Below are positions 3,873 to 29,636 of a stretch of DNA of 32,000 bases, piece after piece. The number at the start of each line of letters is the position of its first letter. Within the stretch, counting starts at the first letter, position 1. Source of the DNA: Nitrosococcus oceani ATCC 19707 (GTDB taxonomy: Bacteria > Pseudomonadota > Gammaproteobacteria > Nitrosococcales > Nitrosococcaceae); contig NC_007484.1 of assembly GCF_000012805.1 (NCBI RefSeq), positions 1,020,001 through 1,052,000 of the forward strand. The letters are read 5' to 3'. The notes under the pieces are model-generated. The model did no database searches. It was not told the origin of the DNA and saw only the letters and a list, made by a program, of their open reading frames with translations. Both the position numbers and the translations under genes were made by a program.

Positions 3873-3884
3873 CTTGCTTACTCT

Positions 3885-5126
3885 ATGACATTAATTGTTC
3901 AAAAATTTGGTGGGACTTCCGTGGGGACTCTCGAACGTATCGAGGCGATTGCGGATAAACTTGTGGCGTTTCAGCGGAGGGGAGATAGTCTTGTGGCCGT
4001 AGTATCAGCCATGAGCGGCGAGACTAATCGCCTGTTAGCGTTGGCCCATGAAATACACTCCCAGCCTAATCCCCGGGAATTAGATGTCCTGCTTTCTACG
4101 GGCGAGCAGGTAACCATCGCTTTACTGAGTATTGCTATAGAGAAACGCGGGATTCCAGCTCGCTCTTACACCGGATCTCAGGTGTATATCCGTACGGACA
4201 GCGCCCATAATAAAGCCCGTATTCAGGAGATTGATGCCAAACGTATCCATGATGACCTGAGACAAGGGCGAATTGTGGTTGTTGCTGGTTTTCAAGGGGC
4301 AGACGAGAAAGGGAATATTACCACTTTGGGGCGGGGTGGTTCCGATACGACTGCTGTGGCGCTGACTGCAGCACTGGAAGCAGGCGAGTGCCAAATTTAT
4401 ACGGATGTCGATGGCGTTTACACGACTGATCCGCGAGTAGTTCCAGAGGCCCGGCGGTTAGCTCGCCTGACCTATGAAGAAATGCTTGAATTGGCGAGCC
4501 TCGGCGCCAAAGTTCTACAAATTCGGGCGGTTGAGTTTGCCAGCAAGCATCACGTGCCCTTGAGAGTGTTGTCATCATTTGAAAAAGGGGAGGGTACCCT
4601 GATTACATCTGAGGTAGAGGGAATGGAAGAGCCACTAATTTCTGGAATCGCTTTTAATATTGATGAAGCTAAGCTAACCATATTAGGTGTGCCTGACAAG
4701 CCCGGTGTTGCCTATCATATTCTTGGCCCTGTTGCCGATGCTAATATTGGGGTAGATATGATTATTCAAAATGTGGGTAGAGATGGCACGACGGATTTTA
4801 CTTTTACCGTACATCGGAATGATTATTTGAAGGCCCTTGAGATTTTACGCGAATCCGCCTCGACTCTAGGTGCGCGGGAGGTCCGGGGAGATGATAAAAT
4901 CGCGAAAATATCAGTAGTTGGCGTCGGTATGCGTTCCCATGCAGGCATTGCCAGCACTATGTTCCATACGCTAGCACAAGAAGGAATCAATATTCAGACT
5001 ATTTCCACTTCGGAGATCAAAATCTCGGTGGTTATAGAAGAGAAATACTTGGAACTCGGAGTACGGGCTTTACACTCGGCGTTTGAATTAGAAAAAGCGC
5101 CGAGTAGAATATCCTCCTCTCTTTAA
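3885..5126 (+). CDS. lysC: Aspartate kinase (monofunctional, two C-terminal ACT domains)
   Basis: A 413-aa ORF with the N-terminal VQKFGGTSV motif, LGRGGSDTTAVALA-like GRGGSDTTAVAL, DVDGVYTTDPR, and a C-terminal ACT-type region (ISVVGVGMRSHAGIA). Confidence 0.93.
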   Translation: MTLIVQKFGGTSVGTLERIEAIADKLVAFQRRGDSLVAVVSAMSGETNRLLALAHEIHSQPNPRELDVLLSTGEQVTIALLSIAIEKRGIPARSYTGSQVYIRTDSAHNKARIQEIDAKRIHDDLRQGRIVVVAGFQGADEKGNITTLGRGGSDTTAVALTAALEAGECQIYTDVDGVYTTDPRVVPEARRLARLTYEEMLELASLGAKVLQIRAVEFASKHHVPLRVLSSFEKGEGTLITSEVEGMEEPLISGIAFNIDEAKLTILGVPDKPGVAYHILGPVADANIGVDMIIQNVGRDGTTDFTFTVHRNDYLKALEILRESASTLGAREVRGDDKIAKISVVGVGMRSHAGIASTMFHTLAQEGINIQTISTSEIKISVVIEEKYLELGVRALHSAFELEKAPSRISSSL

Positions 5127-5672: not shown

Positions 5673-5765
5673 GGAGAGATGGCCGAGCGGCTGAAGGCGC
5701 TCCCCTGCTAAGGGAGTATGGGGTTAGTAGCTCCATCGAGGGTTCGAATCCCTCTCTCTCCGCCA
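5673..5765 (+). tRNA. tRNA-Ser (anticodon GCU), class II with long variable arm, CCA encoded
   Basis: Folded by hand: acceptor GGAGAGA/TCTCTCC, D-stem GCC/GGC, anticodon stem CTCCC/GGGAG with loop CT-GCT-AA, a 21-nt variable arm, T-arm GAGGG-TTCGAAT-CCCTC, discriminator G and CCA. Total length is 93 nt. Confidence 0.93.
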
Positions 5766-9945: not shown

Positions 9946-10242
9946 TTAGGTATATTGTTGTAGTAATGCTTGAGCGATGTTTTCCCATTCTGTTTCCAAA
10001 GGCAATTGAGATGGAGTTTGGCCAGCGCGAGAATACCAATAAGCAGCATTTGAAGGGTCTCCCTCCTTTCGATGTAGGTAGGCATGTATCCAAGCTCCGG
10101 CCTTATCTCCAGCTGATTGAGCAAGATGGTGAGCTTGATGCCAATCCCCTTTAGCCTCGTACCATAACGCCTGAAGGGGTAAAGGGAAGTCCTGGGGGGG
10201 CTGGTCCGCGCCCAGTGAGTTTTTAAATTCTTGTAGTCCCAT
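9946..10242 (-). CDS. Small conserved hypothetical protein (98 aa, helical)
   Basis: The ORF ends 10 nt upstream of the next gene's start. The sequence ALWYEAKGDWHQAHHLAQS...AWIHAYLHRKEGDPSNAAYWYSRAG looks like a small family widespread in bacteria that I recall but cannot name. The function is unknown. Confidence 0.6.
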   Translation of the reverse strand: MGLQEFKNSLGADQPPQDFPLPLQALWYEAKGDWHQAHHLAQSAGDKAGAWIHAYLHRKEGDPSNAAYWYSRAGQTPSQLPLETEWENIAQALLQQYT

Positions 10243-10731
10243 TAGATTGTTAAGCCCCTATTTATTTATTAAAAAATTAATACCTATATAGTTCTGGTCT
10301 TGGTGCTAACTATGGGTGCAGCGTTTATTAGACCATGTTATTTAGTAACATACATGGGCTGTTATCAGCAAAATATAGAGTATATAGTTTTGGTAGGGAG
10401 GTTGTAGCCAACCTTTCCCTAATTAAAATTAGAGGTTTCCGGGCCGTGAAAGTTTATGAAAATAGCTGCCTGTAGTGCCCACAACCGTACGATCGCCAAT
10501 TTTTATTGGCGGCTAACCGTGATATTGACCGTGAATTAGTGTTTTTCGAAACACCCTTGCGCAAACTACGCTGCAAAACACCGGTATATTCGAACGGGAT
10601 GGTGTATGCGAGAATGAAGTAACTCTGGAGCTGCTGCGGTGAGGTTAAATGGAATTTTTATGTACAGCCCAAATTTTCCTGCCATGCTTAATCTGTCTTA
10701 CGGCAGTCAAGGATAGGAGCGCCTAGTTCTT

Positions 10732-11709
10732 ATGCTGGCTTATATTGTTCGCCGTATCCTCTATGCTATTCCAATCCTAGTGGGAGTCAATATTTTGACT
10801 TTTGCTTTATTTTTTGGAATCAACAGCCCGGATGATATGGCCCGAATGCATCTTGGTACTAAGCGCGTCACTCAGGAAGCCATAGACGCCTGGAAGCGGG
10901 AACGAGGCTATGATAAGCCCTTATTCTGGAACAGCGATGCGAAGGGAGAGGATAAATTTACTGAAACTATTTTTTTTACTAAATCGATTTCTTTATTTCT
11001 CTTCCAATTTGGCCATGCTGATGATGGGCGAGATATTGGCCACGATCTCCGAACCCGTATGTGGCCCAGTTTAGCCATTGCAGCGCCTATTTTTATAGGG
11101 GGCCTACTAGTGAATACTACCTTTGCGTTATTAATGGTTTTTTTCCGCGGCACCTATTTAGATTTGGGAGGGGTGGTGCTTTGTGTGGCCTTAATGTCTA
11201 TCTCCACACTATTTTATGTGATTATGGGTCAGTACCTGGTAGGTAAGCTGATGCATTTGGTTCCTGTTTCCGGCTATGTGGGTGGATTGGATGCTTTTAA
11301 ATTCATCATCTTGCCCATCATTATTGGGATTATCTCAGGTATTGGGGCTGGCGCCCGGTGGTATCGAACCTTATTTTTGGAAGAGGTGGGTAAGGATTAC
11401 GTCCGTACGGCCCGCGCTAAGGGTTTATCCGAGTTCAAAGTGCTGTTTAAGCACATACTAAAAAATGCTTTGATTCCTATTTTGACGGGGGCTGTGGTGA
11501 TTTTACCTACTCTATTTTTGGGTAGTCTTATTTTGGAGTCTTTTTTTGGCATCCCCGGCCTTGGTAGTTATACCATCGATGCCATCCAAGCCCAAGATTT
11601 TGCCATTGTGCGCGCTATGGTATTTTTGGGATCGGTGCTCTATATCTTGGGTCTGATTCTAACTGATATCTCCTATACTCTAGTAGATCCGCGGGTACGT
11701 CTTAACTGA
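10732..11709 (+). CDS. ABC transporter permease, Dpp/Opp/YejB type
   Basis: A 325-aa ORF with an AGGAG Shine-Dalgarno upstream. The N-terminus MLAYIVRRILYAIPILVGVNILTF is typical of DppB/OppB/YejB. The EAA-loop region is YVRTARAKGLSEFKVLFKHILKNALIPILT. Confidence 0.9.
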   Translation: MLAYIVRRILYAIPILVGVNILTFALFFGINSPDDMARMHLGTKRVTQEAIDAWKRERGYDKPLFWNSDAKGEDKFTETIFFTKSISLFLFQFGHADDGRDIGHDLRTRMWPSLAIAAPIFIGGLLVNTTFALLMVFFRGTYLDLGGVVLCVALMSISTLFYVIMGQYLVGKLMHLVPVSGYVGGLDAFKFIILPIIIGIISGIGAGARWYRTLFLEEVGKDYVRTARAKGLSEFKVLFKHILKNALIPILTGAVVILPTLFLGSLILESFFGIPGLGSYTIDAIQAQDFAIVRAMVFLGSVLYILGLILTDISYTLVDPRVRLN

Positions 11710-11713
11710 AATA

Positions 11714-13126
11714 ATGTCTTTTCAGCCTGTTTTTCTCTGGACCGATATTCTCATCTACCTGTTACTAGCCCTGTTGGCAGTAGCAATAGGCGTGATTTGC
11801 CGACGCAAATACCTGCGCGCAGCCTGGAAGCATGTTTTGCGCAGCCGCCGCGGCCAAATTACCTCGGTGATTCTTCTCGCCTATGCTTTAATAGGTCTTT
11901 TGGATTCGGTCCATTTACGTCAGGCTTTAACGCTTCCCCCAGCTCTGCAGGCAACTACTTCGGTTCAATATTCTTCCGAGGTACTCAGCCTGCTGGATCT
12001 GTGGGTTTTTCATTTACGAGAACAGATAGAGACCACCTATTCGGCTCCCTTTGCTACCCATCTTTATACGAAAGCGTTAGTAACCCTACCAGATGGAGAG
12101 CAGCTACGAGCTTATCCTCGATTGAAATATGGAGGGGTCCATTTAGTCGATCCGGCAGAACGTTGGCGTGATATAACTCAGACAGTATTCCTAGCCGGCG
12201 GAAAAGGTCTCTTTTGCTGGTTGTTTCTCACCCTTTTGGGGCTAGCCTGGTTGGCAAAACGGCGGGGCGTGAGCTATTCCGTTTATCTGGGGTGGGTGTT
12301 GCGGGGTAGTCCAAACGCCCCATGGCGGGTTGCTTGTATCACAGTTGGGATTGTGTTGATATTCGCCTTTATAGCTGCTGCCTTAAGCCAGGATTACCAT
12401 ATTTTTGGAACTAATAAAGTTGGCCAGGATGTTTTTTATCAGAGTTTGAAGAGTATTCGTACGGGGCTTGTGATTGGCACACTGACTACCTTGGTGATGC
12501 TCCCCCTTGCGTTGATGCTGGGAATCGTTGCAGGTTATTTTCGGGGCTGGATAGATGATATTATTCAATATATCTATACTACCCTTAATTCTATCCCCGG
12601 GGTATTGCTGATCGCAGCGGCGATCCTCATGCTGGAAGTCTATATTGGTAACCATCCGGAGAAGTTTGGGACCGTAGCCGAGCGGGCTGATCTGCGTCTT
12701 CTCTTTCTTTGCCTTATTCTTGGAGTGACCAGTTGGACTGGATTATGCCGAATCCTGCGGGGGGAGACCCTCAAGCTTCGGGAAGCCGACTATGTTTTGG
12801 CGGCCCAAGCTTTTGGAGTAAGCCGAAGCAAGATTTTGCTCCATCATATTTTACCTAATGTGATGCATATCGTGTTGATATCGGTAGTGCTGGATTTCAG
12901 CGGGCTTGTGCTAGCCGAAGCGGTATTATCCTATGTGGGGGTAGGGGTTGATCCTTCCACTATGAGCTGGGGCAATATGATCAACAGCGCCCGCCTGGAA
13001 ATGGCTCGGGAACCGATGGTGTGGTGGTCTTTAACAGCGGCTTTCCTATTTATGTTTATCCTGGTTCTCGCCGCTAATCTGTTTTCTGATGTGGTACGGG
13101 AAGCGTTGGATCCGCGAATGGGATAG
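11714..13126 (+). CDS. ABC transporter permease, DppC/YejE type with long N-terminal extension
   Basis: A 470-aa ORF starting 5 nt after the previous gene. The C-terminal half has the DppC-type core (DDIIQYIYTTLNSIPGVLL..., YVLAAQAFGVSRSKILLHHILPNVM). The N-terminal 230 aa or so add extra hydrophobic helices and a loop. Confidence 0.88.
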   Translation: MSFQPVFLWTDILIYLLLALLAVAIGVICRRKYLRAAWKHVLRSRRGQITSVILLAYALIGLLDSVHLRQALTLPPALQATTSVQYSSEVLSLLDLWVFHLREQIETTYSAPFATHLYTKALVTLPDGEQLRAYPRLKYGGVHLVDPAERWRDITQTVFLAGGKGLFCWLFLTLLGLAWLAKRRGVSYSVYLGWVLRGSPNAPWRVACITVGIVLIFAFIAAALSQDYHIFGTNKVGQDVFYQSLKSIRTGLVIGTLTTLVMLPLALMLGIVAGYFRGWIDDIIQYIYTTLNSIPGVLLIAAAILMLEVYIGNHPEKFGTVAERADLRLLFLCLILGVTSWTGLCRILRGETLKLREADYVLAAQAFGVSRSKILLHHILPNVMHIVLISVVLDFSGLVLAEAVLSYVGVGVDPSTMSWGNMINSARLEMAREPMVWWSLTAAFLFMFILVLAANLFSDVVREALDPRMG

Positions 13127-19072: not shown

Positions 19073-20356
19073 TTAAGGTACGCGCTGGTTAATGACCACC
19101 GATACCGGTTTGGAAGAGGTAGCTGGAATAATACCTTCCGCAAATCCTTCGAAATCACCACTTTGAGGTACCGGATTGCCTGACCAAGAAACTCGGGCCC
19201 CGACTTGAAACTCGCTAAAATTCGACATCTTCATGCTCGGCATCATCGCCATGGAGTCATTTAATACCACTGTAAGAGGTAGATCTTTAACCTGGTGCCG
19301 GGCAGCGGCTAAGGGCATGGGAGGACCTTTAGCTGCACGGGCGAAAACGAAGACGGTAGAGCTTTCAGAGACCTCACCCTGCAGGGCAGGATCAAGCGCT
19401 ACTTTCACCTCGATGCGAGGGGCTGGCGTATCCCCTTCTTCCGTGTTGGTAGTGGTTGCCGGGGCTCGCGCTTCGGTAGTAACGCGAGCCTCCGTTGTTG
19501 CTCCACCAGCTGCCATTTCTGGTGCTAATTGCGCTAAATGGGCGCGCACCATACGTTCTTCCTCGCTACCTGGTGGGAGCTGAGAAGCCAGTCGTTGGAG
19601 GTAGGATTTTGCTTCTTCGTCCTGGTTTGTTTGAAGCGCGTTTACCGCTGCCAACCACAATGCTTTGGGATGCTGGGGGGCGAGTTCAAGCGCACGATGT
19701 ACCAGCTTCAAAGGCGCTCCCTGCAGGCGCCGTCCTTGGCTTGCGGCGAGGGCTTCCGCATAATCTAAAATGACATCGGGATTTTGGTCATCTAAAGTAT
19801 AGGCACGGCCTAATGCTTCGGAAGCTTTCGCAAATTCATTGGTAGCCAAATAGGTGCGTCCTAACAATTGCCATCCTCTGACATCTTCGGGGTGTTCCGC
19901 AAGCCGTGCTTTAAGTCCCTCCATGGCGTGACGCATGGTATCCATTTCTTGCTGAGAACCTTCTTCCATGGCCAAAAAACGCGCAACTTGATCGCTTGCT
20001 CCAAGTTGTTGATAGGCCACGAAGGCGAGTGAAGGCGTGAGTAAGAGCAGAAAGAGCGCAGTGATCCAATGCCGCTTTGGTTTGAGTTCAGTAGAAGGTG
20101 TGCTGCCCGTAGCAAGATCGGCAGCCATAGCTTCTTCTAGCTCGCGCCGGGCTAGGGCAAATTGTTCCTCGTTTAGAGTACCATTGCGAAGCTCCGCACG
20201 TAGTTCCCGCAGTCGTTCACGGTAAATCGCGATCTCCGCCGTCGTTTCATCAAGAACCTGTTGATTATGGCGGCGTAATAAGGGGGGGAGCAAAAAACTG
20301 AGTGCAAGAAGCACCATTATTCCTGCAGCTATCCAAAATATTGACAAGGAAGTCAT
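19073..20356 (-). CDS. ccmI: Cytochrome c-type biogenesis protein CcmI (CycH), TPR-containing
   Basis: A 427-aa ORF whose start overlaps the ccmH stop by 4 nt. It has an N-terminal TM helix, a second TM helix, TPR-like repeats (LGRTYLATNEFAKASEALGRAY) and the usual position at the end of the ccm cluster. Confidence 0.85.
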   Translation of the reverse strand: MTSLSIFWIAAGIMVLLALSFLLPPLLRRHNQQVLDETTAEIAIYRERLRELRAELRNGTLNEEQFALARRELEEAMAADLATGSTPSTELKPKRHWITALFLLLLTPSLAFVAYQQLGASDQVARFLAMEEGSQQEMDTMRHAMEGLKARLAEHPEDVRGWQLLGRTYLATNEFAKASEALGRAYTLDDQNPDVILDYAEALAASQGRRLQGAPLKLVHRALELAPQHPKALWLAAVNALQTNQDEEAKSYLQRLASQLPPGSEEERMVRAHLAQLAPEMAAGGATTEARVTTEARAPATTTNTEEGDTPAPRIEVKVALDPALQGEVSESSTVFVFARAAKGPPMPLAAARHQVKDLPLTVVLNDSMAMMPSMKMSNFSEFQVGARVSWSGNPVPQSGDFEGFAEGIIPATSSKPVSVVINQRVP

Positions 20357-20814
20357 GAGTTCTCTTCCTCCAGTAGTTTAGCCATACGGCGATGTTCCGC
20401 TTCAGAAAGGGTAGGGGTCAAGGTTTGGTGGCGTCTTCGCATGGCAACGATGAATACCCCGAATCCCAATAATAAAAGTAATACAGGCCCGAACCAAAGC
20501 AAATAGGTGGTAGGCTGCATCGGTGGTCGGTAAAGGACAAAATCCCCATAACGCTGTACCAGAAAATCAACGATTTCCTCATTGCTGGCGCCCTGTTGCA
20601 TCTTTTGATAAATTTCGCGCCGCAAATCGCCCGCTAGATCGGCATGGGAATCGGCAAGGGATTGGTTTTGGCAGACTAAACACCGCAGTTCTTCAGCCAG
20701 TTGCTGGAATCTGGCTTCTTGACTTGGGTCGTCAAACTTGAAAATGGCAGGATCGGCGGCAAAGACCACCTGTGGTCCCGCCAAGATAACCATCAATAGT
20801 AATGTCCGGATCAT
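20353..20814 (-). CDS. ccmH: Cytochrome c-type biogenesis protein CcmH (CcmL/CycL)
   Basis: A signal peptide followed by the LRCLVCQNQSLADSHADLAGDLRREI motif (the CXXC of CcmH), then a C-terminal TM helix. Confidence 0.9.
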   Translation of the reverse strand: MIRTLLLMVILAGPQVVFAADPAIFKFDDPSQEARFQQLAEELRCLVCQNQSLADSHADLAGDLRREIYQKMQQGASNEEIVDFLVQRYGDFVLYRPPMQPTTYLLWFGPVLLLLLGFGVFIVAMRRRHQTLTPTLSEAEHRRMAKLLEEENS

Positions 20815-20815
20815 T

Positions 20816-21349
20816 TTAACCCCCTTGAGTTTCGAATGACCGAATTAGAGGGAGCAGCTTATCTTCTACAACCTTCCAGGTTAAGGGACCAATCTGCTTA
20901 TAACGAATAACGCCTTCGGGATCGAGGAGAAAGGACTCAGGGACCCCATAAACGCCCCACTCGATGCCCACCTGCCCATCAGTATCGACGGCAATGGCTG
21001 CATAAGGGTCGCCAAGATTAGCTAGCCATTGTAATGCAGCTCCTCGTTCATCTTTGTAGTTGAGGCCAATGATGGGCAACCGGGTTTCTCTCGCTAACCG
21101 CATGAGAACTTCATGTTCTGCCCGGCAGGCAACGCACCAACTGGCCCATACATTGATCAAAGCTGGTTTACCAAGGAGGTCGCTGCGGTAGATTTCTTTG
21201 CTAGGCGTTCTGAGCTGGGAAACCCCCAGCTCCGGAGCTGGTTTATCAATAAACGGCGATGGCACTTGCCGGGGATCCCGCTGTAGGCCAACAGCAAAGA
21301 ACAGGACCAGAGCTGTAAAAATAATTAAGGGAATAGTATAGCGCAACAT
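20816..21349 (-). CDS. ccmG: Thiol:disulfide interchange protein CcmG/DsbE
   Basis: A 177-aa membrane-anchored thioredoxin fold with active site WASWCVACRAEH and GVYGVPESFLLD. Confidence 0.9.
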   Translation of the reverse strand: MLRYTIPLIIFTALVLFFAVGLQRDPRQVPSPFIDKPAPELGVSQLRTPSKEIYRSDLLGKPALINVWASWCVACRAEHEVLMRLARETRLPIIGLNYKDERGAALQWLANLGDPYAAIAVDTDGQVGIEWGVYGVPESFLLDPEGVIRYKQIGPLTWKVVEDKLLPLIRSFETQGG

Positions 21350-23334
21350 TAGATTTCAGCCGCAGCCTCAGGTTTGGGAGGGTTAAGCTTGAAGCGCATT
21401 TTTTGTACGCTCACCCGGTAACGTCGATCACTGGCGGCAACTGCGCCGCCTAGGGCCATCAATAATCCACCCAGCCAAATCCAGCGTACAAAAGGCTTAA
21501 ATTGAATGCGTAGACTCCAAGTATTACTGCCAAGAGATTCTCCCAAGGCAACGAATAGATCCCGGAATAACCCTGCATCAATACCCGCTTCCGTCATGGG
21601 AGAAGTTTGTACTAGGTAAATGCGTTTTTGGGGGTGGAGGGTCGTGATCAAATCTTCACCCTTGAAGACCGATATAGTTCCCTCAATAGCCCGATAGTTG
21701 GGACCATCAACCTCATGAATTTTATCTAGGCGGAACTCATAGGCGCCTAATTCCGCTGTCTCGCCAACGGTAACGCCCACATCCCGGTCCTGTCCATAGA
21801 TAGTGGTTAAAGTGACGCCGACAATAGCGACTGCAAAGCCGGTATGGGCCAAGGACATGCCTATAAAGCTCCGCGATAAGGAACGTGCTCCTGCTACAAT
21901 TCCCCCCCGGTTTCTGAGTCGATTCCAGAGGCCAAGAAGAGTTGTTAGGGCAACCCAGATAGCGACGGTCAGCCCGGCGGCTGCGCTGAAAATATCTCCT
22001 TTATCAACGATATAGGGAACTAGAATTCCAATTGTTAAGCTAATGGCAAAGATAAAACCTAATTTTTTGACGAGTTCCCCTAAGCTTTGCTGCTTCCAGC
22101 GGGATAGGGGGCCAGCTCCTAGCAAGAAAGCTAGGATGACCATTAAAGGCACAAATACGGTATCAAAATAGGGTGGTCCTACCGAGATTTTACCTAACCC
22201 TAATCCTTCGAGAACCAGTGGATAAAGAGTACCTAACAACACACTGCCTGCAGCGACTATGAGTACGACATTGTTCGCCAATAGAAGCCCTTCGCGGGAA
22301 AGAAGATGAAAACGGCCTGTATCCTGTACTTGCGGCACCCGCACGGCATAGAGAAGGAGTGATCCGCCTACGGCAAGTCCTAGCAATATCAGGATAAAAA
22401 CACCCCGCGTAGGATCCGTTGCAAAGGCATGCACGGAGGTGAGTACCCCGGAGCGCACTATAAAGGTTCCAAGCAGGCTGAGGGAGAAAGTAAAAATGGC
22501 GAGCAGTACTGTCCAGCGCTTGAAGGCATCCCGTTTTTCAGTCACGGCAAGGGAATGAATTAGCGCGGTACCCACAAGCCACGGCATAAAGGAAGCATTT
22601 TCAACCGGATCCCAGAACCACCAGCCGCCCCAGCCGAGTTCGTAGTAGGCCCACCAGCTCCCTAAGGTAATCCCAATAGATAAAAATAACCACGCAACTA
22701 CCGTCCAGGGTCTAGACCACCGCGCCCAGGCTGCATCTAGGCGTTTGCCGATAAGCGCCGCAATGGCAAAGCTAAAGGCCACGGAAAAGCCCACATAACC
22801 CATATAGAGCATGGGGGGGTGCATCACTAGGCCGGGGTCTTGCAATAAAGGATTGAGATCTTGTCCGTCTAAGGGGGCGGGGAAAAGACGTAAAAATGGA
22901 TTAGAGGTTAGGAGCATAAATAACAGAAAGCCCACATTAACCATGCCCATGACGGCTAGCACACGGGCCACATAGGCTAATGGTATGCTACGGCTAAATA
23001 AGGCCACAGCTACTGTCCACAGGCCTAGAGTTAGGCTCCACAGTAATAGTGATCCTTCGTGGGACCCCCAGATGGCGGCAAAACGATAGGCTGGTGGTAG
23101 CGCGGAATTAGAATTATTGGCTACATAGGCTACGGAAAAATCATTATTGAGAAAGCTGATAGCCAGGCAGGTGAAGGCAACGATTAGGAAGAAACACTGA
23201 CCGTAAGCGGCAGTTCGTGCTACATTCATCCAGCCTATGATTCCACGCTGAGCGCCAATAAGAGGCAATATTGCCTGGGAGAAGGCTAGGGTGAGGGCTA
23301 AAATCAGTGCGAGTTGTCCAAGTTCTGGAGTCAT
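21349..23334 (-). CDS. ccmF: Cytochrome c heme lyase subunit CcmF
   Basis: A 661-aa polytopic protein with the WWD motif GWGGWWFWDPVENASFMPWL and conserved His residues, in the canonical cluster position. Confidence 0.95.
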   Translation of the reverse strand: MTPELGQLALILALTLAFSQAILPLIGAQRGIIGWMNVARTAAYGQCFFLIVAFTCLAISFLNNDFSVAYVANNSNSALPPAYRFAAIWGSHEGSLLLWSLTLGLWTVAVALFSRSIPLAYVARVLAVMGMVNVGFLLFMLLTSNPFLRLFPAPLDGQDLNPLLQDPGLVMHPPMLYMGYVGFSVAFSFAIAALIGKRLDAAWARWSRPWTVVAWLFLSIGITLGSWWAYYELGWGGWWFWDPVENASFMPWLVGTALIHSLAVTEKRDAFKRWTVLLAIFTFSLSLLGTFIVRSGVLTSVHAFATDPTRGVFILILLGLAVGGSLLLYAVRVPQVQDTGRFHLLSREGLLLANNVVLIVAAGSVLLGTLYPLVLEGLGLGKISVGPPYFDTVFVPLMVILAFLLGAGPLSRWKQQSLGELVKKLGFIFAISLTIGILVPYIVDKGDIFSAAAGLTVAIWVALTTLLGLWNRLRNRGGIVAGARSLSRSFIGMSLAHTGFAVAIVGVTLTTIYGQDRDVGVTVGETAELGAYEFRLDKIHEVDGPNYRAIEGTISVFKGEDLITTLHPQKRIYLVQTSPMTEAGIDAGLFRDLFVALGESLGSNTWSLRIQFKPFVRWIWLGGLLMALGGAVAASDRRYRVSVQKMRFKLNPPKPEAAAEI

Positions 23335-23774
23335 AGCTTATCCTCGGTATTAGCTTTTGTTTTGGCAAGCGAGTCGGCGACCTCGGGTGGCATATATTCT
23401 TCGTCGTGTTTTGCTAACACTTCGCTAGCTTCAAACACCTTGTTGGGTCCTAGCTTACCCATGGCAACGATCCCTTGTCCCTCGCGAAATAAATCAGGGA
23501 GGAGACCGCTATAGACCACGGTTACTGTCTGCGCCATATCGGTGAGGTCAAATTGTACATCTAGATTGCCGCTTTCTCGCTTTACACTGCCATTAACCAC
23601 CACTCCTCCGACTCTAATGCTAGTGTCCGTAGGCACTTCTCCAGCCATGATTTGAGTTGGGTTGTAAAAAAAGAGAATGTTTTCTTGAAAGGCTTTTAGC
23701 CCTAGTCCAGTGGCAATGGAAACCCCTATAACTACCAGTATTACCATCGCAAACCGCCTTTGACGCACAGTCAT
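23331..23774 (-). CDS. ccmE: Heme chaperone CcmE
   Basis: A 147-aa ORF with an N-terminal anchor and an OB fold. The heme-binding region is LAKHDEEYMPPEV. Confidence 0.93.
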   Translation of the reverse strand: MTVRQRRFAMVILVVIGVSIATGLGLKAFQENILFFYNPTQIMAGEVPTDTSIRVGGVVVNGSVKRESGNLDVQFDLTDMAQTVTVVYSGLLPDLFREGQGIVAMGKLGPNKVFEASEVLAKHDEEYMPPEVADSLAKTKANTEDKL

Positions 23775-23929
23775 AACTTATCCTCTCGCTGTAGCTGACG
23801 GGTTATTCGGCGCTGCCGAAGTCGGGCATGTATTATATTGCCCACTAATACGACGGCGGCAATTCCATAGGCTGTCCATACGTAAAGGGCATATCCGCCC
23901 ATATGGAAAAATTCCTGCAATGTATTCAT
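23771..23929 (-). CDS. ccmD: Heme exporter protein CcmD (52 aa; below ORF-track cutoff)
   Basis: Hand translation gives MNTLQEFFHMGGYALYVWTAYGIAAVVLVGNIIHARLRQRRITRQLQREDKL. The EFFxMGGYAxYVW motif matches E. coli CcmD (EFFAMGGYAFFVW). The stop overlaps the ccmE ATG (ATGA). Confidence 0.78.
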   Translation of the reverse strand: MNTLQEFFHMGGYALYVWTAYGIAAVVLVGNIIHARLRQRRITRQLQREDKL

Positions 23930-24161
23930 AACTCAGGAGAAAATTTCAAGGTGGTGATTAAAAATATGTTTAGGTACTATCTCATTTGATAGCCGGTTAG
24001 CGAGTTCTCCGGCTATTATAAAATCTAGTTACGAGGGCTAAAGCACAGCTTAATCCCTATTTCTACAACAGTTTAAGGAAAACCTGCCCGAAGAATGGAC
24101 TCTAGAACAGTCCACTAGTTCATTATTCATTGGTTCGCTAGCAAGATTTAAACAATAGAAG

Positions 24162-24914
24162 TTAAGAAGAACTTAGCACCTGTTTGACCCAACCATTATT
24201 ACGCTCTCGTTCTAGGAGTTCTGAGCGGGTCCGGAGCAGGAGTAAAGTTATATAGTAAGTTGTGAAGGCCGTTGCCATAATGAGCAATGGAATTAGCATG
24301 CTCCAGTGAATAGACGGAGCGTCAAATTTAGTGACTGTAGGGCCTTGATGCAAGGTATTCCACCACTCTACTGAATAGTGAATAATGGGTAAGTCGACTA
24401 CGCCCACCAAGGCAAGGATAGCCGCTGCCCGGGCAGCTTGCCGGGGGTCTTCGATAGCCGACTGCAAGGCCATGTAACCTAGATACAGGAATAACAGAAT
24501 TAGCTCTGAGGTCAGACGTGCATCCCATACCCACCAGGTTCCCCACATGGGTTTCCCCCAAAGCGAACCCGTGATTAACGCTAATAAGGTAAAAGAGGCG
24601 CCCAATGGAGCGCTGGCACTGCCAATGACCTCTGCAACTTTGACTCGCCAGATTAGGGCAATAGCACCTGCCGAAGCCATGACGACGTAGATGAACAAGG
24701 ACATCCAGGCGCTGGGGACATGGATAAATATAATTCGGTAGCTGTCGCCTTGTTGGTAATCCGCCGGGGCGACGACTAACCCCCAATAAAGTCCTACGAT
24801 CATCAAGATTGCAGTAATGCTCGCTAGCCATGGAAGTAGGCGGCCAGACCAGATATAAAAATATTTTGGAGAGGCTAAATGTTGGTATCGATGGTGGAAT
24901 GGTAGATAATGCAT
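24162..24914 (-). CDS. ccmC: Heme exporter protein CcmC
   Basis: A 250-aa polytopic protein with the WWD motif WGKPMWGTWWVWDARLTSELIL. Confidence 0.93.
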   Translation of the reverse strand: MHYLPFHHRYQHLASPKYFYIWSGRLLPWLASITAILMIVGLYWGLVVAPADYQQGDSYRIIFIHVPSAWMSLFIYVVMASAGAIALIWRVKVAEVIGSASAPLGASFTLLALITGSLWGKPMWGTWWVWDARLTSELILLFLYLGYMALQSAIEDPRQAARAAAILALVGVVDLPIIHYSVEWWNTLHQGPTVTKFDAPSIHWSMLIPLLIMATAFTTYYITLLLLRTRSELLERERNNGWVKQVLSSS

Positions 24915-24918
24915 CAGT

Positions 24919-25623
24919 TTAACTCATTCGGATACATAAGGCGGCCGAGGTGGCGATGGGCGCCAAGGTTGCGGCCAATACTAATAAGGCGCCAAGGAGA
25001 TAAAGCTGCCCATCGGCAGGCAGGCCCTGGGCGGCTGTCTCTACAGCGCCAGCGCTGAAGATCAAGATAGGGACATAAAGGGGGAGTAATAGTAGGGTAA
25101 GCAGTAAGCCACCCCGCCTTAACCCTACGGTTAAGGCCACCCCCACTGCTCCCACTAAACTGAGGGCAGGCGTACCCACTAGGAGAGTTATCAACAAGAT
25201 AACCAGAGGCCAACCCGAAATGCCAAATATTAACCCCAAAAGGGGGGCGAGCAAAATCAATGGCAGCCCGGTAGCCAGCCAGTGCGCAAAGATTTTGGCA
25301 AGTACCAGTATAGGCAAGGGATGGGGACTTAGAATAAGTTGCTCCAGGCTGCCGTCATCAAAATCTGAACGGAACATGGCTTCCAAAGAAAGCAAGGTGG
25401 CAAGCAAGGCTGCAATCCAGATGATACCGGGTGCAATTTGTCGTAGTACTCCACTCTCCGGTCCGATACCGAGCGGGAAAATGCTGGCTACCATGAGAAA
25501 AAAGAGGAGTGGATTGGCGGCATCGCTGCGGTGTCTGAGCACTAATAAGAGATCACGTTTGGTGAGCCACCAGCAGGCATGAGAGAGGGTAGATGCATTC
25601 ATCGGTAGGGCTAAACTGGTCAT
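24919..25623 (-). CDS. ccmB: Heme exporter permease CcmB
   Basis: A 234-aa six-helix hydrophobic protein lying between ccmA and ccmC. It contains the CcmB-like segments FPLGIGPE and FSAGAVE. Confidence 0.9.
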   Translation of the reverse strand: MTSLALPMNASTLSHACWWLTKRDLLLVLRHRSDAANPLLFFLMVASIFPLGIGPESGVLRQIAPGIIWIAALLATLLSLEAMFRSDFDDGSLEQLILSPHPLPILVLAKIFAHWLATGLPLILLAPLLGLIFGISGWPLVILLITLLVGTPALSLVGAVGVALTVGLRRGGLLLTLLLLPLYVPILIFSAGAVETAAQGLPADGQLYLLGALLVLAATLAPIATSAALCIRMS

Positions 25624-25631
25624 AAAGGTGT

Positions 25632-26282
25632 CTAGGCAGAAATTTCTAAGGTTCGAGCATGGGCGATATTGATGGCGTGATGACTGGTAAAAATCGCTAT
25701 TCCTCCCGCAGCAGCATGTTCCTCTAGTAGAGTAGCGATGGTTCGTATGGCCACTTTATCTAGAGCGGTAAAAGGCTCATCCAGAAGCCACAACCATGCC
25801 CGGTTGACTAATAGGCGGGCCAGCGCTAAGCGGCGGCGTTGTCCCGCTGAGAGGAATCGGCCGGGGAGTTCCCGTATTGTAGTTAAACCGACGCGTTCTA
25901 GCGCCTGTTCCGGATCTATGCCCCCTCCGTTAAGTGCTCCTGCTATCATAAGATTTTCGTGGGCAGTTAGCTCTCCCTTAATGGCATCGGTATGGCCCAC
26001 ATAGGAAAGTTCGCTGTGGTACAGGGGTCTTATTTTATTGATCGGTTGCCCGCGCCACTGGAGTGTACCTTCTTCAGGTAATAGCAACCCGCACAACAGG
26101 CGTAGCAAGGTAGTCTTGCCTGAGCCATTGTGGCCAGAAACTTCAAGCACTTCTCCCATGTCAACGGTGAAATTCATGTTCTTAAAGAGTAATCGTTCAC
26201 CACGGCGGCCAGCGAGTCCCTCCACTTGTAGTCGTGGTTGTGCTTGGTCCAGCATCGTCTGTTTCTTGTTATCCTTGCCCAT
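25632..26282 (-). CDS. ccmA: Cytochrome c biogenesis ATP-binding export protein CcmA
   Basis: Walker A GHNGSGKTT, signature LSAGQRRR and Walker B WLLDEPFTALD. It is the first gene of the cluster. An alternative start at M10 (26255) is possible. Confidence 0.9.
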   Translation of the reverse strand: MGKDNKKQTMLDQAQPRLQVEGLAGRRGERLLFKNMNFTVDMGEVLEVSGHNGSGKTTLLRLLCGLLLPEEGTLQWRGQPINKIRPLYHSELSYVGHTDAIKGELTAHENLMIAGALNGGGIDPEQALERVGLTTIRELPGRFLSAGQRRRLALARLLVNRAWLWLLDEPFTALDKVAIRTIATLLEEHAAAGGIAIFTSHHAINIAHARTLEISA

Positions 26283-26691: not shown

Positions 26692-28233
26692 ATGGAACAG
26701 GAAACCCATCGTTCGATTCTCGCTGATTTAGTGGACTTCAGTACACAAATGGATTTGGATGCCGTCATGGAGCCTGGAGATGTGCGTCGCCGTGACCGTA
26801 GTATTGGGCGAGAGCTGGAGCACCTTGCAGATAAGCCTCGGAGCCAGCTTCGCCAATGGCTATGGCGGGTTGCTGAGAACAAACATGATTTCCCTGGTAA
26901 TAATGCCGCTAAAACCCTTCGTTTAGTGATGCTAGTGTTGTTTTTTTTCGGGGTGACTGTCGGCTGGATAGCAGCATTGGGGGTGTTCGCCTATGATGGC
27001 ACGCAGCCGGTCAATGTGGTTAATGTATTGGCGGTATTTGTGGGACTCCAAATTCTGCTTTTACTGATGTCCGCTATTATTGCACTGCCACGGAATATAC
27101 TCCGTTTTATCCCTGGAACACGCTCACTGCAGGATCTTTTTGGTGTGTTGAGTCCGGGACGGTTAGCGCCTACAATCGCACGGTTTTTATCGCCAGATTA
27201 CCGTTTGGCCTTTGAAGCAGCCTTGGGTCGCCAAAAGGCGCACCATATTACGTATGGCCGCGTGAGGAAATGGTTGATACTGCAATTCTCCCAGGTATTT
27301 GCCGTGGCTTTCAATTTGGGAGCATTAATCGGCTGCCTTTATCTAGTTACGATTTCTGATCTAGCCTTTGGATGGAGTACGACATTAACGTTTCAGGCTG
27401 AAAAATTCCATTGGTTAGTACAGCAATTAGCTTGGCCGTGGCGCGATTGGCTTGGGAGCGCTGTTCCTTCCGCCAATCTCATTGAGGTGACCCGGTTTTA
27501 TCGTCTTGACGAAGGCATTTTGCCAAATGCAATGAAGCTAGAGTCTAAAGATGCTTCCATTCTAGGTCAGTGGTGGCAATTTTTGCTTCTAGCAATTATC
27601 TTTTATGGTTTGCTACCACGGCTTTTTACGTTAGCTTTTGCTCGCTGGCGCCTTAACGTTGCGTTAAACAATGCTTTCATCCACGCACCAGGGGCTACTC
27701 AGGTTCTTGATCGCATGAATCATGCGGTAGTTGAAACGGCGGCGGTAGAACCCGAGGCAGGAGCAGTACCGATGCCAGAGGTGGTGCCATCTTTTCATGG
27801 CGAGAATTTCGCTGGAATTAAGGGGTACCTTGTTAATTGGGCTGGAATTAATTTGGATGAAAGTCAGTTAGAAAATACGTTGCGGGCGGCCATGGCGGTA
27901 AAGATCGATCAGGTGTTCCATGCGGGCGGTAAAAGCCCTATTGAGCAAGATCAGCGTATTATCGGAAAGTTGCAAGCGGCGGCGGATACAATGGCTATTG
28001 TAGTTGCTGTAAAATCATGGGAGCCTCCTCTCTTGGAATTTTTAGATTTTTTAGAAGCACTCCGATCTGCATTGGGTCCACAGCGATTAATTACGGTGAT
28101 TCCGTTAGCGCTTAACCATAGGGGTGATCTGGTTTCTGCCGATTCCAGTGATTTAGATATTTGGCGGAAAAAGCTGCAGATTCTTGGAGATCCCCAGCTT
28201 GATTTTCGCCCATTGAATTTTAAGGCAAGCTAA
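26692..28233 (+). CDS. Polytopic membrane protein of unknown function (resembles DUF2868 family, from memory)
   Basis: A 513-aa ORF with a charged N-terminus, at least four hydrophobic helices and a soluble C-terminal domain of about 170 aa. It is translationally coupled to the downstream GTPase gene (TAATG overlap at 28231-28235). Confidence 0.7.
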   Translation: MEQETHRSILADLVDFSTQMDLDAVMEPGDVRRRDRSIGRELEHLADKPRSQLRQWLWRVAENKHDFPGNNAAKTLRLVMLVLFFFGVTVGWIAALGVFAYDGTQPVNVVNVLAVFVGLQILLLLMSAIIALPRNILRFIPGTRSLQDLFGVLSPGRLAPTIARFLSPDYRLAFEAALGRQKAHHITYGRVRKWLILQFSQVFAVAFNLGALIGCLYLVTISDLAFGWSTTLTFQAEKFHWLVQQLAWPWRDWLGSAVPSANLIEVTRFYRLDEGILPNAMKLESKDASILGQWWQFLLLAIIFYGLLPRLFTLAFARWRLNVALNNAFIHAPGATQVLDRMNHAVVETAAVEPEAGAVPMPEVVPSFHGENFAGIKGYLVNWAGINLDESQLENTLRAAMAVKIDQVFHAGGKSPIEQDQRIIGKLQAAADTMAIVVAVKSWEPPLLEFLDFLEALRSALGPQRLITVIPLALNHRGDLVSADSSDLDIWRKKLQILGDPQLDFRPLNFKAS

Positions 28234-29636
28234 TGTCCGCTCCCGTATTTGCGGTGGTGGGTCATCCTAACAAGGGCAAGTCGAGTATTGTGGCTACACT
28301 TGCCCAGGACGATTCGGTCCAAATTTCATTGATACCTGGTACCACTGCTAAATGCCGCCATTTCCCCATGAAGGTGGATGGTGAAGTGCAATATATTTTG
28401 GTGGATACACCAGGGTTTCAGCGAGCACGGCAGGTATTGGCATGGATGAAAGCACGGGCGACAACGGCAGCAGAAAGAACCGCAGTCGTTTGCCAGTTTG
28501 TGGAATCTCATCGCGATACGGGTAAATTCGTTGACGAATGTGAATTGCTTGAACCTCTCATTAAGGGTGCAGGCATTTTGTATGTTATCGATGGCTCTCG
28601 CCCCTATGGCGAGGAGTATGAAGCTGAGATGGAAATTCTCCAATGGACCGGTCAGCCTAGCATCGCCCTTATCAATATGATTGGCCAAGATAGTTATATT
28701 GAAGAGTGGCGCGCTGCGTTAAGCCAGTATTTCAGGATTGTTCGAGTATTTAATGCGGTTACGGCAGAGTTTCACAAGCGTCTTGAATTGCTCAAAGCTT
28801 TTGGGCAATTGCGAGAGGAATGGCGGGTTCCATTAAGCCTAGCAGTAAAAACCCTAGAAGAAGACCGCCGTGCCCGGCGCCAGCGGAGCGCTTCATGTAT
28901 CGCGGAGATGTTGGCCGGAATGATATCGCTTAGGGTGACCAAGCGGCTATCCTCTAAAGAAGACGCCCAATCTCATAAAGCATCATTGACTCAAAAGTAT
29001 CAAGCAAAGCTGCGCAGCTTTGAGCAAAAAGGCCGACGCGCCATTGAAGGCATTTATGATTACCATGAATTAAAATGCCGGGAAAAAGAAATTGAAGTAC
29101 TCGATGAGGATCTGTTTTCTCTTGATAGTTGGAATATTTGGGGGTTAAAACGGCGTCAACTCCTCACCACAGGCGCAGCAAGTGGAGCATTGGTTGGTTC
29201 GGGTGTCGATCTAGCAGTGGGCGGGAGCTCTTTGTTATTGGGTGCAACCATTGGTTCCATGGTGGGAGGGGCCTCGGCCTGGTTCTCTTATAACCGTATT
29301 GCGGACGTTAAAATGCTAGGATTGCCGTTGGGTGGAACAGAACTCCGGGTGGGACCCGCCGGCAACATTAATTTTCCCTACGTGGTGTTGGGACGGGCGC
29401 TTTATCACCATGCCGCCGTGACCCGCCGGACTCATGCTCAACGGGATATTCTTAGCCTTGATAATGCAACTGAAACCGCCAGCGCTCGATCTCTTCCAGA
29501 ACAGCAGCGGAAAAAATTAGAAAAAGTGTTTACCCAACTTCGAAATACGGAGGATAATAATGCCGATCCCACTTTAGTAGACCGCTTAGCGGGAATTATT
29601 GAGAATATTATGGAAGATTCGGATCGAATAGTTTAG
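28233..29636 (+). CDS. Membrane-anchored GTPase of unknown function (resembles GTPase/DUF3482 family, from memory)
   Basis: A 467-aa ORF with G1 GHPNKGKSS, G2 PGTT and G3 DTPG. The G4 position reads NMIG rather than NKxD. A charged helical middle region is followed by a C-terminal glycine-zipper hydrophobic hairpin, GAASGALVGSGVDLAVGGSSLLLGATIGSMVGGASAW. Confidence 0.75.
   Translation: MSAPVFAVVGHPNKGKSSIVATLAQDDSVQISLIPGTTAKCRHFPMKVDGEVQYILVDTPGFQRARQVLAWMKARATTAAERTAVVCQFVESHRDTGKFVDECELLEPLIKGAGILYVIDGSRPYGEEYEAEMEILQWTGQPSIALINMIGQDSYIEEWRAALSQYFRIVRVFNAVTAEFHKRLELLKAFGQLREEWRVPLSLAVKTLEEDRRARRQRSASCIAEMLAGMISLRVTKRLSSKEDAQSHKASLTQKYQAKLRSFEQKGRRAIEGIYDYHELKCREKEIEVLDEDLFSLDSWNIWGLKRRQLLTTGAASGALVGSGVDLAVGGSSLLLGATIGSMVGGASAWFSYNRIADVKMLGLPLGGTELRVGPAGNINFPYVVLGRALYHHAAVTRRTHAQRDILSLDNATETASARSLPEQQRKKLEKVFTQLRNTEDNNADPTLVDRLAGIIENIMEDSDRIV

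Follow-up and report, generated by a model that had tools for sequence, protein, structure and literature searches.

A DUF2868 membrane protein paired with a GTPase/DUF3482 protein in Nitrosococcus oceani: conservation, architecture and possible modes of action

What could a polytopic membrane protein and a GTPase accomplish together when the gene for the second starts inside the stop codon of the first? This question is raised by two plus-strand genes in a stretch of 32,000 nucleotides (nt) from Nitrosococcus oceani ATCC 19707 (RefSeq assembly GCF_000012805.1, contig NC_007484.1, positions 1,020,001 to 1,052,000 of the forward strand), hereafter called the window, in which the first letter is position 1. 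A first-pass annotation of this DNA had read them as a translationally coupled, widely conserved module of a DUF2868 membrane protein and a membrane-anchored GTPase/DUF3482 protein, and this core reading holds. It is near certain that the pair is a two-gene operon encoding a DUF2868 inner-membrane protein and a GTPase/DUF3482 protein. The open reading frames (ORFs), their lengths in amino acids (aa) and the junction between them are as the first-pass annotation had given them:

26692..28233 (stop included), plus strand: gene 1, DUF2868-family inner-membrane protein of 513 aa (ORF, Pfam PF11067)
28233..29636 (stop included), plus strand: gene 2, GTPase/DUF3482 protein of 467 aa (ORF, MMR_HSR1 and DUF3482 domains)
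28231..28235, plus strand: TAATG stop/start overlap in the junction gcTAATGtcc, with TAA at 28231-28233, ATG at 28233-28235 and an overlap of 1 nt

Identity, pairing and distribution

Both proteins belong to already catalogued sequence families, of which the N. oceani locus is a typical member. The product of gene 1 matches Pfam DUF2868 (PF11067) over residues 170-500 (E = 4.8e-85, 286.3 bits against a cut-off of 26.8), and that of gene 2 matches MMR_HSR1 (E = 2e-14, 54.1 bits against 21.9) and, after the G domain, DUF3482 (PF11981) over residues 160-442 (E = 2.6e-75, 254 bits against 29.2). The order of G domain and DUF3482 is that of the family named 'GTPase/DUF3482 domain-containing protein' by NCBI. 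Thus, the identity of the pair, as proposed in the first-pass annotation, is confirmed by Pfam; NCBIfam profiles gave no match on the product of gene 1. This product is 100% identical to an N. oceani protein, and that of gene 2 is 96% identical to an N. watsonii protein. Since homologues of the pair number in the thousands, with the best E-values reaching 1e-295, the ORFs are genuine genes, and chance is excluded. An AAGG element resembling a Shine-Dalgarno sequence lies 10-13 nt 5' of the ATG of gene 2, whilst promoter and terminator scans at the pair returned nothing beyond chance. The statement that the families are experimentally uncharacterized was borne out as well, as a full-text search of 8 million papers yielded four in which either DUF is mentioned and no experimental study of function.

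The distribution was assessed in a scan of a genome collection with one genome per species, and at least 585 species were found to carry the module; the locus analysis covered the best 80 loci. These belong to Gammaproteobacteria, Desulfuromonadales and other 'delta' lineages, Myxococcota, Verrucomicrobiota/Kiritimatiellia, Planctomycetota, Campylobacterota and Spirochaetales, all of which are diderm. The pair had been described earlier as widely conserved in proteobacteria; the wide conservation stands, but the restriction to proteobacteria does not, given its presence in Verrucomicrobiota, Planctomycetota, Campylobacterota, Myxococcota, Desulfuromonadales and Spirochaetales. Among the carriers are the pathogens Neisseria meningitidis and Neisseria gonorrhoeae (NMB1645/NMB1644) and Pseudomonas aeruginosa, and Moraxella catarrhalis carries the GTPase alone.

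The two genes are close companions. Hidden Markov model searches of six-frame ORFs located DUF2868 directly upstream of the GTPase gene and on the same strand at 79 of the 79 testable loci, one of the 80 having been left out because its contig starts inside the GTPase gene. Stop and start codons overlap at 68 of 77 junctions, 55 of these overlaps being ATGA or GTGA, and several of the apparent gaps hold an ATGA at the stop and are, therefore, probably start-codon miscalls. Around the pair, no third conserved gene was found, the best flanking cluster, consisting of generic ABC ATPases, being present at 11 of the 80 loci. Pairwise identities of the two proteins correlate with r = 0.93 over 71 genomes (Mantel test, 0/999), with the GTPase evolving more slowly than DUF2868 (mean pairwise identity 0.495 vs. 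0.335). The gene order is maintained in divergent copies, i.e., in those of Thiodictyon (overlapping), P. aeruginosa (8-nt overlap), N. gonorrhoeae (73-nt gap), Psychrobacter (61-nt gap) and Bergeriella (311-nt gap). An exhaustive search with DUF3482 only gave 613 clusters at 50% identity, with full-length members of 450-500 aa in which the domain starts from about residue 180; the GTPase/DUF3482 proteins of Psychrobacter, with 510-570 aa, exceed the family length by about 80-100 aa. A fusion analysis had been proposed in the first-pass annotation, and neither a DUF2868-GTPase fusion nor an alternative N-terminal domain was found among the best 150 of the 613 clusters. In other genomes, the genes are neighbors at all testable loci of the best 80, but the adjacency is not absolute.

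The exceptions are four Moraxella species, M. catarrhalis, M. sp. FZFQ2102, M. lacunata and M. caviae, in which the GTPase gene has no adjacent DUF2868 gene; none was found within 6-8 kb of it. Its neighbors vary by species and encode a 4HBT thioesterase, FabH or a MiaB-like enzyme. The Moraxella GTPases keep 47 of 56 positions that are conserved in the paired lineages, including all catalytic motifs and the glycine ladder and Asp326 of the membrane hairpin described below. Three non-conservative changes are found genus-wide, i.e., W71 to F/Y, W138 to G/N/S/I and A319 to M. These changes, which represent a single evolutionary event, are weak evidence that W71, W138 and A319 might be contact points for DUF2868.

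Architecture of the two proteins

The topology of the DUF2868 protein was derived from hydropathy and charge statistics over 54 homologues and compared with an AlphaFold2 model, which has a predicted local distance difference test score (pLDDT) of 82.8 and a predicted template-modeling score (pTM) of 0.78. The protein has exactly four transmembrane (TM) helices, with hydrophobic cores at residues 77-100, 109-131, 195-220 and 293-317, and its predicted topology is N-in/C-in, as fixed by the charge bias of the loops. The earlier description of gene 1 as encoding a charged N-terminus of about 75 aa and a soluble C-terminal domain was correct, with boundaries now at about 76 aa and at residues 376-505, whereas the 'four or more' helices of that description are reduced to four. 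The predicted parts are the following:

26692..26919, plus strand: cytoplasmic N-terminal helical domain, aa 1-76 (AlphaFold2 helices 9-25, 28-41 and 49-61; 16.4 Lys plus Arg per 100 aa)
26791-26799, plus strand: RDR motif with R34-D35, invariant also in the Neisseria and Thiodictyon copies
26920..27084, plus strand: TM1 (aa 77-100), short periplasmic turn YDGxxPVN and TM2 (aa 109-131)
27085..27273, plus strand: cytoplasmic loop, aa 132-194 (family net charge +6.2, positive-inside analysis)
27274..27351, plus strand: TM3, aa 195-220 (hydropathy peak 2.08; conserved polar Q201 and N208 mid-membrane)
27352..27567, plus strand: periplasmic loop, aa 221-292 (net charge -3.0; 5.9 Lys plus Arg per 100 aa)
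27355-27387, plus strand: invariant aromatic motif SDLAFGWSTTL in the periplasmic loop, which also has PW and TRYFR
27568..27642, plus strand: TM4, aa 293-317 (hydropathy peak 1.87)
27604-27624, plus strand: YGLLPRL motif in TM4, with Y305, G306, P309, R310 and L311 invariant and the Arg inside the hydrophobic stretch
27817..28206, plus strand: cytoplasmic C-terminal (beta-alpha)5 domain, aa 376-505 (AlphaFold2, pLDDT about 85)

TM1 and TM2 reach family hydropathy peaks of 2.24 and 2.60 and correspond to helices 68-99 and 109-131 of the model; the first periplasmic turn is surrounded by three invariant residues, G91, G103 and N108. In the periplasmic loop, F226-x-W228-xxx-L232 and P259 are invariant across all subfamilies. 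The C-terminal domain is less conserved, and its AGG and WEPP motifs are confined to the main subfamily; their loss in Neisseria speaks against a catalytic site in this domain. The possibility that it constitutes a cryptic G domain or pseudo-GTPase was not supported, as hhalign against the GTPase gave 0.3% and the best sequence in the PDB was CheY at E = 1.1. No significant match to the fold of the DUF2868 protein was found in the PDB (best E = 0.086), nor was there one by profile against PDB sequences or by Foldseek in a viral structure library. Pfam scans of its N-terminal, periplasmic-loop and C-terminal parts, and of the hairpin of the GTPase, gave only sub-threshold Gly-zipper matches. 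An unusually long DUF2868 protein, of 703 aa, is encoded on the Thiodictyon megaplasmid pTs485 (2884-4995 of the locus stretch), where the pair adjoins the pufBA light-harvesting genes; its Pro/Ala-rich insertions, about 190 aa in total, lie both within the C-terminal domain and in the stretch that connects it to the membrane part.

For the GTPase, conservation was determined in an alignment of 52 homologues, extended with the Neisseria and Thiodictyon copies at 25-31% identity, and the AlphaFold2 model has a pLDDT of 79.5 and a pTM of 0.79. Its parts are the following:

28233..28757, plus strand: G domain, aa 1-175, of the Era/Der/MnmE/FeoB (TEES, TrmE-Era-EngA-YihA-septin-like) class, according to Foldseek, PDB profile, hhalign and motifs
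28260-28283, plus strand: G1, GHPNKGKS, residues 10-17
28335-28346, plus strand: G2, PGTT, residues 35-38
28404-28415, plus strand: G3, DTPG, residues 58-61, followed by Phe
28425-28562, plus strand: three-helix insert after switch II, aa 65-110
28665-28685, plus strand: degenerate G4, ALINMIG, with NMIG at residues 148-151
28758..29144, plus strand: charged helical stalk, aa 176-304 (long helices 180-231 and 246-274; 16.7 Lys plus Arg per 100 aa)
29145..29294, plus strand: double glycine-zipper membrane hairpin, aa 305-354 (hydropathy, column composition)
29208-29210, plus strand: invariant Asp326 at the tip of the hairpin
29295..29633, plus strand: post-hairpin cytoplasmic region, aa 355-467, with a beta-hairpin, a basic/His helix and C-terminal helices (AlphaFold2)
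29373-29444, plus strand: conserved basic/His helix GRALxHHxxxxxRTHAxR

The G domain is modeled as six strands with the three-helix insert. When the model was compared with the PDB by Foldseek, only G domains were matched (Era, Der/YphC, EngB, Nog1 and Ras, from 1.9e-6), and the family profile against all PDB sequences matched Der (2e-16), followed by MnmE, FeoB (4e-5) and Era. Of the hallmarks of the TEES class, GxxxxGK[ST], the switch-I Thr, DxxG and a fold closest to Era, Der and EngB are present, whereas the canonical G4 [NT]KxD is lacking. G1 (G-H-x-N-x-G-K-[ST]), the switch-I TT, DTPG and Asn148 are all invariant, down to 25% identity. Also invariant, in Neisseria, Thiodictyon and Moraxella as well, is an Asn (N13) at position 4 of the P-loop, a residue that coordinates the activating K+ in MnmE, FeoB and Era-type enzymes; hence, the GTPase has the sequence hallmark of the cation-dependent (K+-stimulated) GTPases, i.e., Asn in GxxNxGKS. 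With Phe following DTPG, it belongs among the enzymes whose catalytic Gln is replaced by a hydrophobic residue. The G motifs and the non-canonical NMIG reported earlier are all present at their residues. In the G4 of the family, Asn148 (in LIN[M/P]I) alone is fixed; neither Lys nor Asp is constant there in any subfamily among the 52 homologues and the Neisseria, Thiodictyon and Moraxella copies, nor is there a fixed Asp nearby. Therefore, the degenerate G4 is a family-wide property, and, without the specificity Asp, nucleotides other than GTP may be accepted.

The stalk is modeled with a pLDDT of 84-95 across residues 180-280. It leads into residues 309-354, the sole stretch of the GTPase with a hydrophobicity of TM grade (family-mean Kyte-Doolittle peak 1.62), and the membrane-inserting Gly-zipper hairpin predicted in the first-pass annotation is thereby supported. 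Small residues form i+4 ladders in both arms, i.e., G314-G318-G322 in arm 1 and G337-G341-G345-A349 in arm 2, with Asp326 between the arms. All 52 aligned sequences have G318, G322, D326, G331, G341 and G345, and these residues are also kept in Neisseria, Thiodictyon and Moraxella. In the basic/His helix of the tail, R388, R399 and H401 are kept across all lineages.

Possible modes of action

As a system, the pair belongs to no characterized family, and only the class of its G domain is shared with Era/Der and FeoB. The first-pass annotation had proposed a profile search for a functionally characterized family, and such searches placed the proteins in none of those considered, i.e., Era/Der, FeoB, dynamins, YcjXF, LeoABC and YfjP. 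The function that we infer, tentatively and at rather less than an even chance, is that of an inner-membrane machine driven by nucleotides, in which the GTPase would be the engine. The adjacency at all testable loci, the overlapping junctions, the lack of a third neighbor, the correlated divergence and the invariant architecture argue for a partnership, and it is likely that the two proteins form a heteromeric membrane complex in the paired lineages. The overlapping stop and start codons would lead to coupled and roughly equimolar synthesis of both proteins. Through its hairpin, the GTPase would be anchored in the inner membrane, and the small-residue faces of this hairpin may pack onto the four helices of DUF2868, onto other hairpins, or both. 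Nucleotide binding and hydrolysis, probably activated by dimerization of the G domains and a monovalent cation (K+) as in the nearest relatives, would produce a movement that is relayed via the stalk to the membrane-embedded part; the chances that such a mechanochemical coupling exists are about even. In this scheme, DUF2868 would be a dedicated, co-evolving membrane partner, and the role of engine is assigned to the GTPase because it is the slower-evolving partner and its motifs are intact where DUF2868 is not adjacent.

As the output of this machine, we favor a small membrane conduit or transducer that opens or rearranges under nucleotide control, which would amount to the logic of FeoB distributed over two polypeptides; that gating or a conduit is the actual output is, by itself, doubtful. 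It is favored because of the polar residues in the TM helices of DUF2868, the buried R310, the acidic tip of the hairpin and the glycine zippers, which are reportedly enriched in channel-forming helices. FeoB couples a K+-activated G domain of the Era/Der/MnmE/FeoB class to a permease. For residues 2-152, hhalign against Escherichia coli FeoB gave a probability of 82%, in an alignment that pairs LINMIG with LNMLD of FeoB; a GxPNxGK[ST] P-loop with the K+-activation Asn, a VVD strand and a G4 beginning with 'NM' are shared; and the G domain is tied to inner-membrane helices through a helical domain, as is predicted for the pair. However, FeoB unites G domain and large permease domain in one polypeptide and has kept the G4 Asp (NMLD), whereas the membrane part of the pair would consist of a two-helix Gly-zipper hairpin and a separate four-TM protein of unmatched fold. 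Pfam found no match to the FeoB permease domain in gene 2, and there is no iron-related context near the best 80 loci.

Several observations weigh against a gated machine of this kind. The similarity to FeoB ends with the G domain at residue 152, and FeoB_N scored 23.0 bits against a cut-off of 27. DUF2868 resembles no transporter or channel fold that was searched, and no substrate-related genes are conserved near the pair. Model confidence is lowest in the hairpin (residues 316-354, pLDDT <50), and the hydrophobicity of the hairpin is borderline, so it may occupy one leaflet rather than span the membrane. The stand-alone GTPase of Moraxella speaks against DUF2868 as an indispensable conduit, unless it is encoded elsewhere in the genome. 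Finally, the loss of the G4 Asp makes even the name 'GTPase' an assumption.

The reading that survives next best, although unlikely, is that of a membrane-remodeling machine comparable to atlastin, mitofusin and the bacterial dynamin-like proteins. Such a machine would serve the inner membrane under stress by tethering, bending, fusing or repairing it; its nucleotide-bound G domains would dimerize on the same or on apposed membranes, with the hairpin acting as a wedge and DUF2868 as an adaptor. The order of the parts, i.e., G domain, helical stalk, membrane hairpin and helical tail, parallels that of atlastin, mitofusin, BDLP and LeoA; the borderline hydrophobicity of the hairpin would suit a wedge, and the GTPase can stand alone in Moraxella. 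Weak PADLOC matches to LeoA (1.8e-6) and LeoBC (0.0025) point in the same direction, as do two published observations: in the dark phase, the abundance of a Thiodictyon DUF2868 protein was higher, as was that of stress proteins (PMC6413534), and the transcript of NMB1644 rose slightly, by 1.49-fold, in a meningococcal ptsH mutant, in which dnaK was up as well (PMC5031443). On the other hand, GTPase/DUF3482 proteins are about half the size of atlastin, mitofusin and BDLP and have an Era-like G domain and an almost obligatory polytopic partner, whereas the known remodeling GTPases need no obligatory polytopic partner with a conserved periplasmic loop. Furthermore, the stalk is short, the match to LeoA spans residues 5-86 only, and no dynamin, atlastin, mitofusin or BDLP chain is found among the 39 Foldseek matches in the PDB (E <= 0.001) or in the PDB profile search (E <= 10). 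Homology with dynamins was rejected, as Dynamin_N scored 17.7 bits against a cut-off of 27 and matched the P-loop region only (residues 7-38). The evidence does not clearly separate gating from remodeling, with the Moraxella GTPase and the borderline hairpin favoring the latter.

A likeness to YcjX/YcjF had been suggested alongside that to dynamins. This E. coli pair, a P-loop NTPase and a DUF697 membrane protein, is linked to the Psp response. It is likewise an overlapping two-gene operon for an NTPase and an inner-membrane protein, so the logic of the two pairs is analogous; however, the NTPase gene comes first in ycjXF, and its product has no membrane hairpin of its own. With hhalign probabilities of 0.2% (NTPases) and 0.4% (membrane proteins), and without Pfam matches to DUF463 or DUF697, homology was rejected here as well; thus, the YcjX/YcjF and dynamin comparisons, which had been offered as inference, do not represent homologies.

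A signaling switch, in which DUF2868 would sense a periplasmic or membrane cue and act as exchange factor, GTPase-activating protein or effector for a GTPase relaying the signal to the cytoplasm, is less likely than gating or remodeling and rather improbable. The conserved periplasmic loop with its invariant aromatic motifs, the two cytoplasmic domains on DUF2868 and the strict co-evolution of both proteins would all fit, and the invariant RDR motif could conceivably reach the active site of the Gln-less GTPase. However, the loop comprises only about 70 aa and has no recognizable sensor fold, no downstream partner or regulator gene is conserved near the best 80 loci, and an elaborate, invariant glycine-zipper hairpin exceeds the needs of a simple anchor. 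Besides, GTPases of the Era/Der/MnmE/FeoB class usually have a low affinity for nucleotides and need no exchange factor.

Less likely than gating or remodeling, too, and indeed very improbable, is a membrane-tethered, Era/Der-like ribosome or translation factor, which would, for example, aid assembly or the co-translational insertion of membrane proteins. Der, Era, EngB and Nog1, the nearest relatives in sequence and fold, are GTPases of ribosome assembly, and the pair adjoins infB in Neisseria. For residues 1-175, the best matches in sequence and fold are indeed to Era, Der (EngA), EngB and MnmE, with which the hydrophobic residue after DxxG and the Asn in the P-loop are shared. However, the similarity is confined to the G domain: GTPase/DUF3482 proteins have a membrane hairpin, a partner and a G4 without Lys and Asp, and neither the KH domains that define Era and Der nor any other RNA-binding domain was found by Pfam in gene 2. 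Orthology with Era or Der was rejected, as gene 2 scored 44 bits with the NCBIfam equivalogs, far under the cut-offs of 237 (Era) and 306.7 (Der); the NCBIfam match to MnmE was likewise confined to the G domain and far too weak. The adjacency to infB is not conserved among the best 80 loci.

That the pair serves anti-phage defense, LeoABC-like, or is mobile-element cargo, encoded by prophages, has a negligible chance and is rejected because of the host DNA in the phage records concerned and the near-absence from plasmids. The PADLOC match to LeoBC is marginal, and that to LeoA is confined to residues 5-86. The GTPase also matches phrog_8900 and is found in 14 'Moraxella phage Mcat' records and in 'Pseudomonas phage Y10', but DUF2868 has no PHROG family, and these phage records contain host DNA. 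Around the match in 'Pseudomonas phage Y10' (OQ572411.1, marked UNVERIFIED), the sequence is P. aeruginosa chromosome, with thyA, lgt, a glycerophosphodiester phosphodiesterase gene and the pair. In the 14 Mcat records, the GTPase gene is located outside the prophage end, where an AlpA-like gene is last, and beside a host UbiB kinase gene, and a prophage-free M. catarrhalis strain has the same host genes downstream of the GTPase gene. Among 72,556 plasmid records, the pair occurs in three, i.e., in one 485-kb megaplasmid and in two 2.17-Mb N. gonorrhoeae records. Moreover, the two proteins co-diverge tightly across phyla, and their flanking genes are ordinary housekeeping genes.

Some details of these records deserve mention. 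The two N. gonorrhoeae entries labeled as plasmids, NZ_CP119142.1 and NZ_CP119140.1, are chromosome-sized, with 2.17 Mb each. The family phrog_8900 is the cellular GTPase/DUF3482 family, which a Neisseria protein matches at 1.2e-132, and it probably entered PHROGs via prophage records with host flanks. The Mcat prophages (phage records KR0936xx) end about 130 nt upstream of the GTPase gene, which encodes 466 aa in the lysogen and 454 aa in the prophage-free strain; thus, the attachment site seems to be at the 5' end of this gene. YfjP and its relatives YeeP and YkfA of E. coli cryptic prophages have an MMR_HSR1-type G domain, and hhalign gave 85% over the first ~60 residues, but neither DUF3482 nor a hairpin is present in YfjP, and its gene does not adjoin a DUF2868 gene. 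As YfjP lacks DUF3482 and does not match phrog_8900, the latter was rejected as a YfjP family.

Going back to a nucleotide-driven inner-membrane machine, the pair may be the founding example of an undescribed class of such machines in diderms, a suggestion that is made with reservation. Such a class would combine a G domain of the Era/FeoB class without guanine specificity, possibly using ATP as well as GTP, with a self-associating glycine-zipper hairpin, acidic and conserved at its tip, and a four-TM partner of unseen fold, and it would gate a conduit or remodel the membrane whilst being unrelated to FeoB, dynamins and YcjXF.

Genomic context and significance

In the window, the pair is divergent from a cluster resembling that for cytochrome c maturation, ccm. 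Judged from their translations, the minus-strand ORFs at 19073-26282 have features of such a cluster, including an ABC ATPase at 25632-26282 and a Trp-rich WGxxWxWD in the product of 24162-24914. The link to ccm suggested in the first-pass annotation is not conserved, and a functional connection was rejected, as ccmB, ccmC and ccmF adjoin the pair at none of the 80 other loci. Elsewhere in the window, a tRNA-Ser (anticodon GCT) at 5673-5765 on the plus strand is the sole match to Rfam or by ARAGORN, and at 10001-13000 the G+C content drops to 0.44-0.49 and the AT skew turns strongly negative, reaching -0.28, unlike in the rest of the window.

Apart from the two observations in Thiodictyon and the meningococcus given above, the literature mentions the P. 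aeruginosa pair in a purely in-silico description (PMC12864544). In the same species, a 'hypothetical protein' of 50.5 kDa, PA0344, was less abundant in a small-colony variant (PMC3240657). PA0344 maps to the thyA region, as does the pair, but its reported mass and isoelectric point (pI) of 50.5 kDa and 6.8 fit neither protein cleanly, the computed values being 49,980 Da and 6.27 for the GTPase and 49,628 Da and 6.85 for DUF2868; therefore, it was not used as evidence. Literature searches by locus tag did not tie NGO1284 to the pair and gave nothing relevant for PA0345/PA0346.

To our knowledge, few bacterial GTPases are built directly into membranes, and the characterized membrane GTPases, i.e., FeoB, the SRP receptor and the dynamin-like proteins, each defined a mechanism. 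The analysis turns two DUFs into a testable object, with a topology map and the invariant residues K16, N13, N148, D326, R34/D35 and R310. In addition, it yields three candidate interface residues (W71, W138 and A319), tractable hosts and a natural lineage without the partner. If the loss of the G4 Asp means a relaxed specificity, the family would bear on how P-loop GTPases change their nucleotide preference. The module will not surprise a specialist, yet it is well-defined, broadly conserved and relevant to pathogens.

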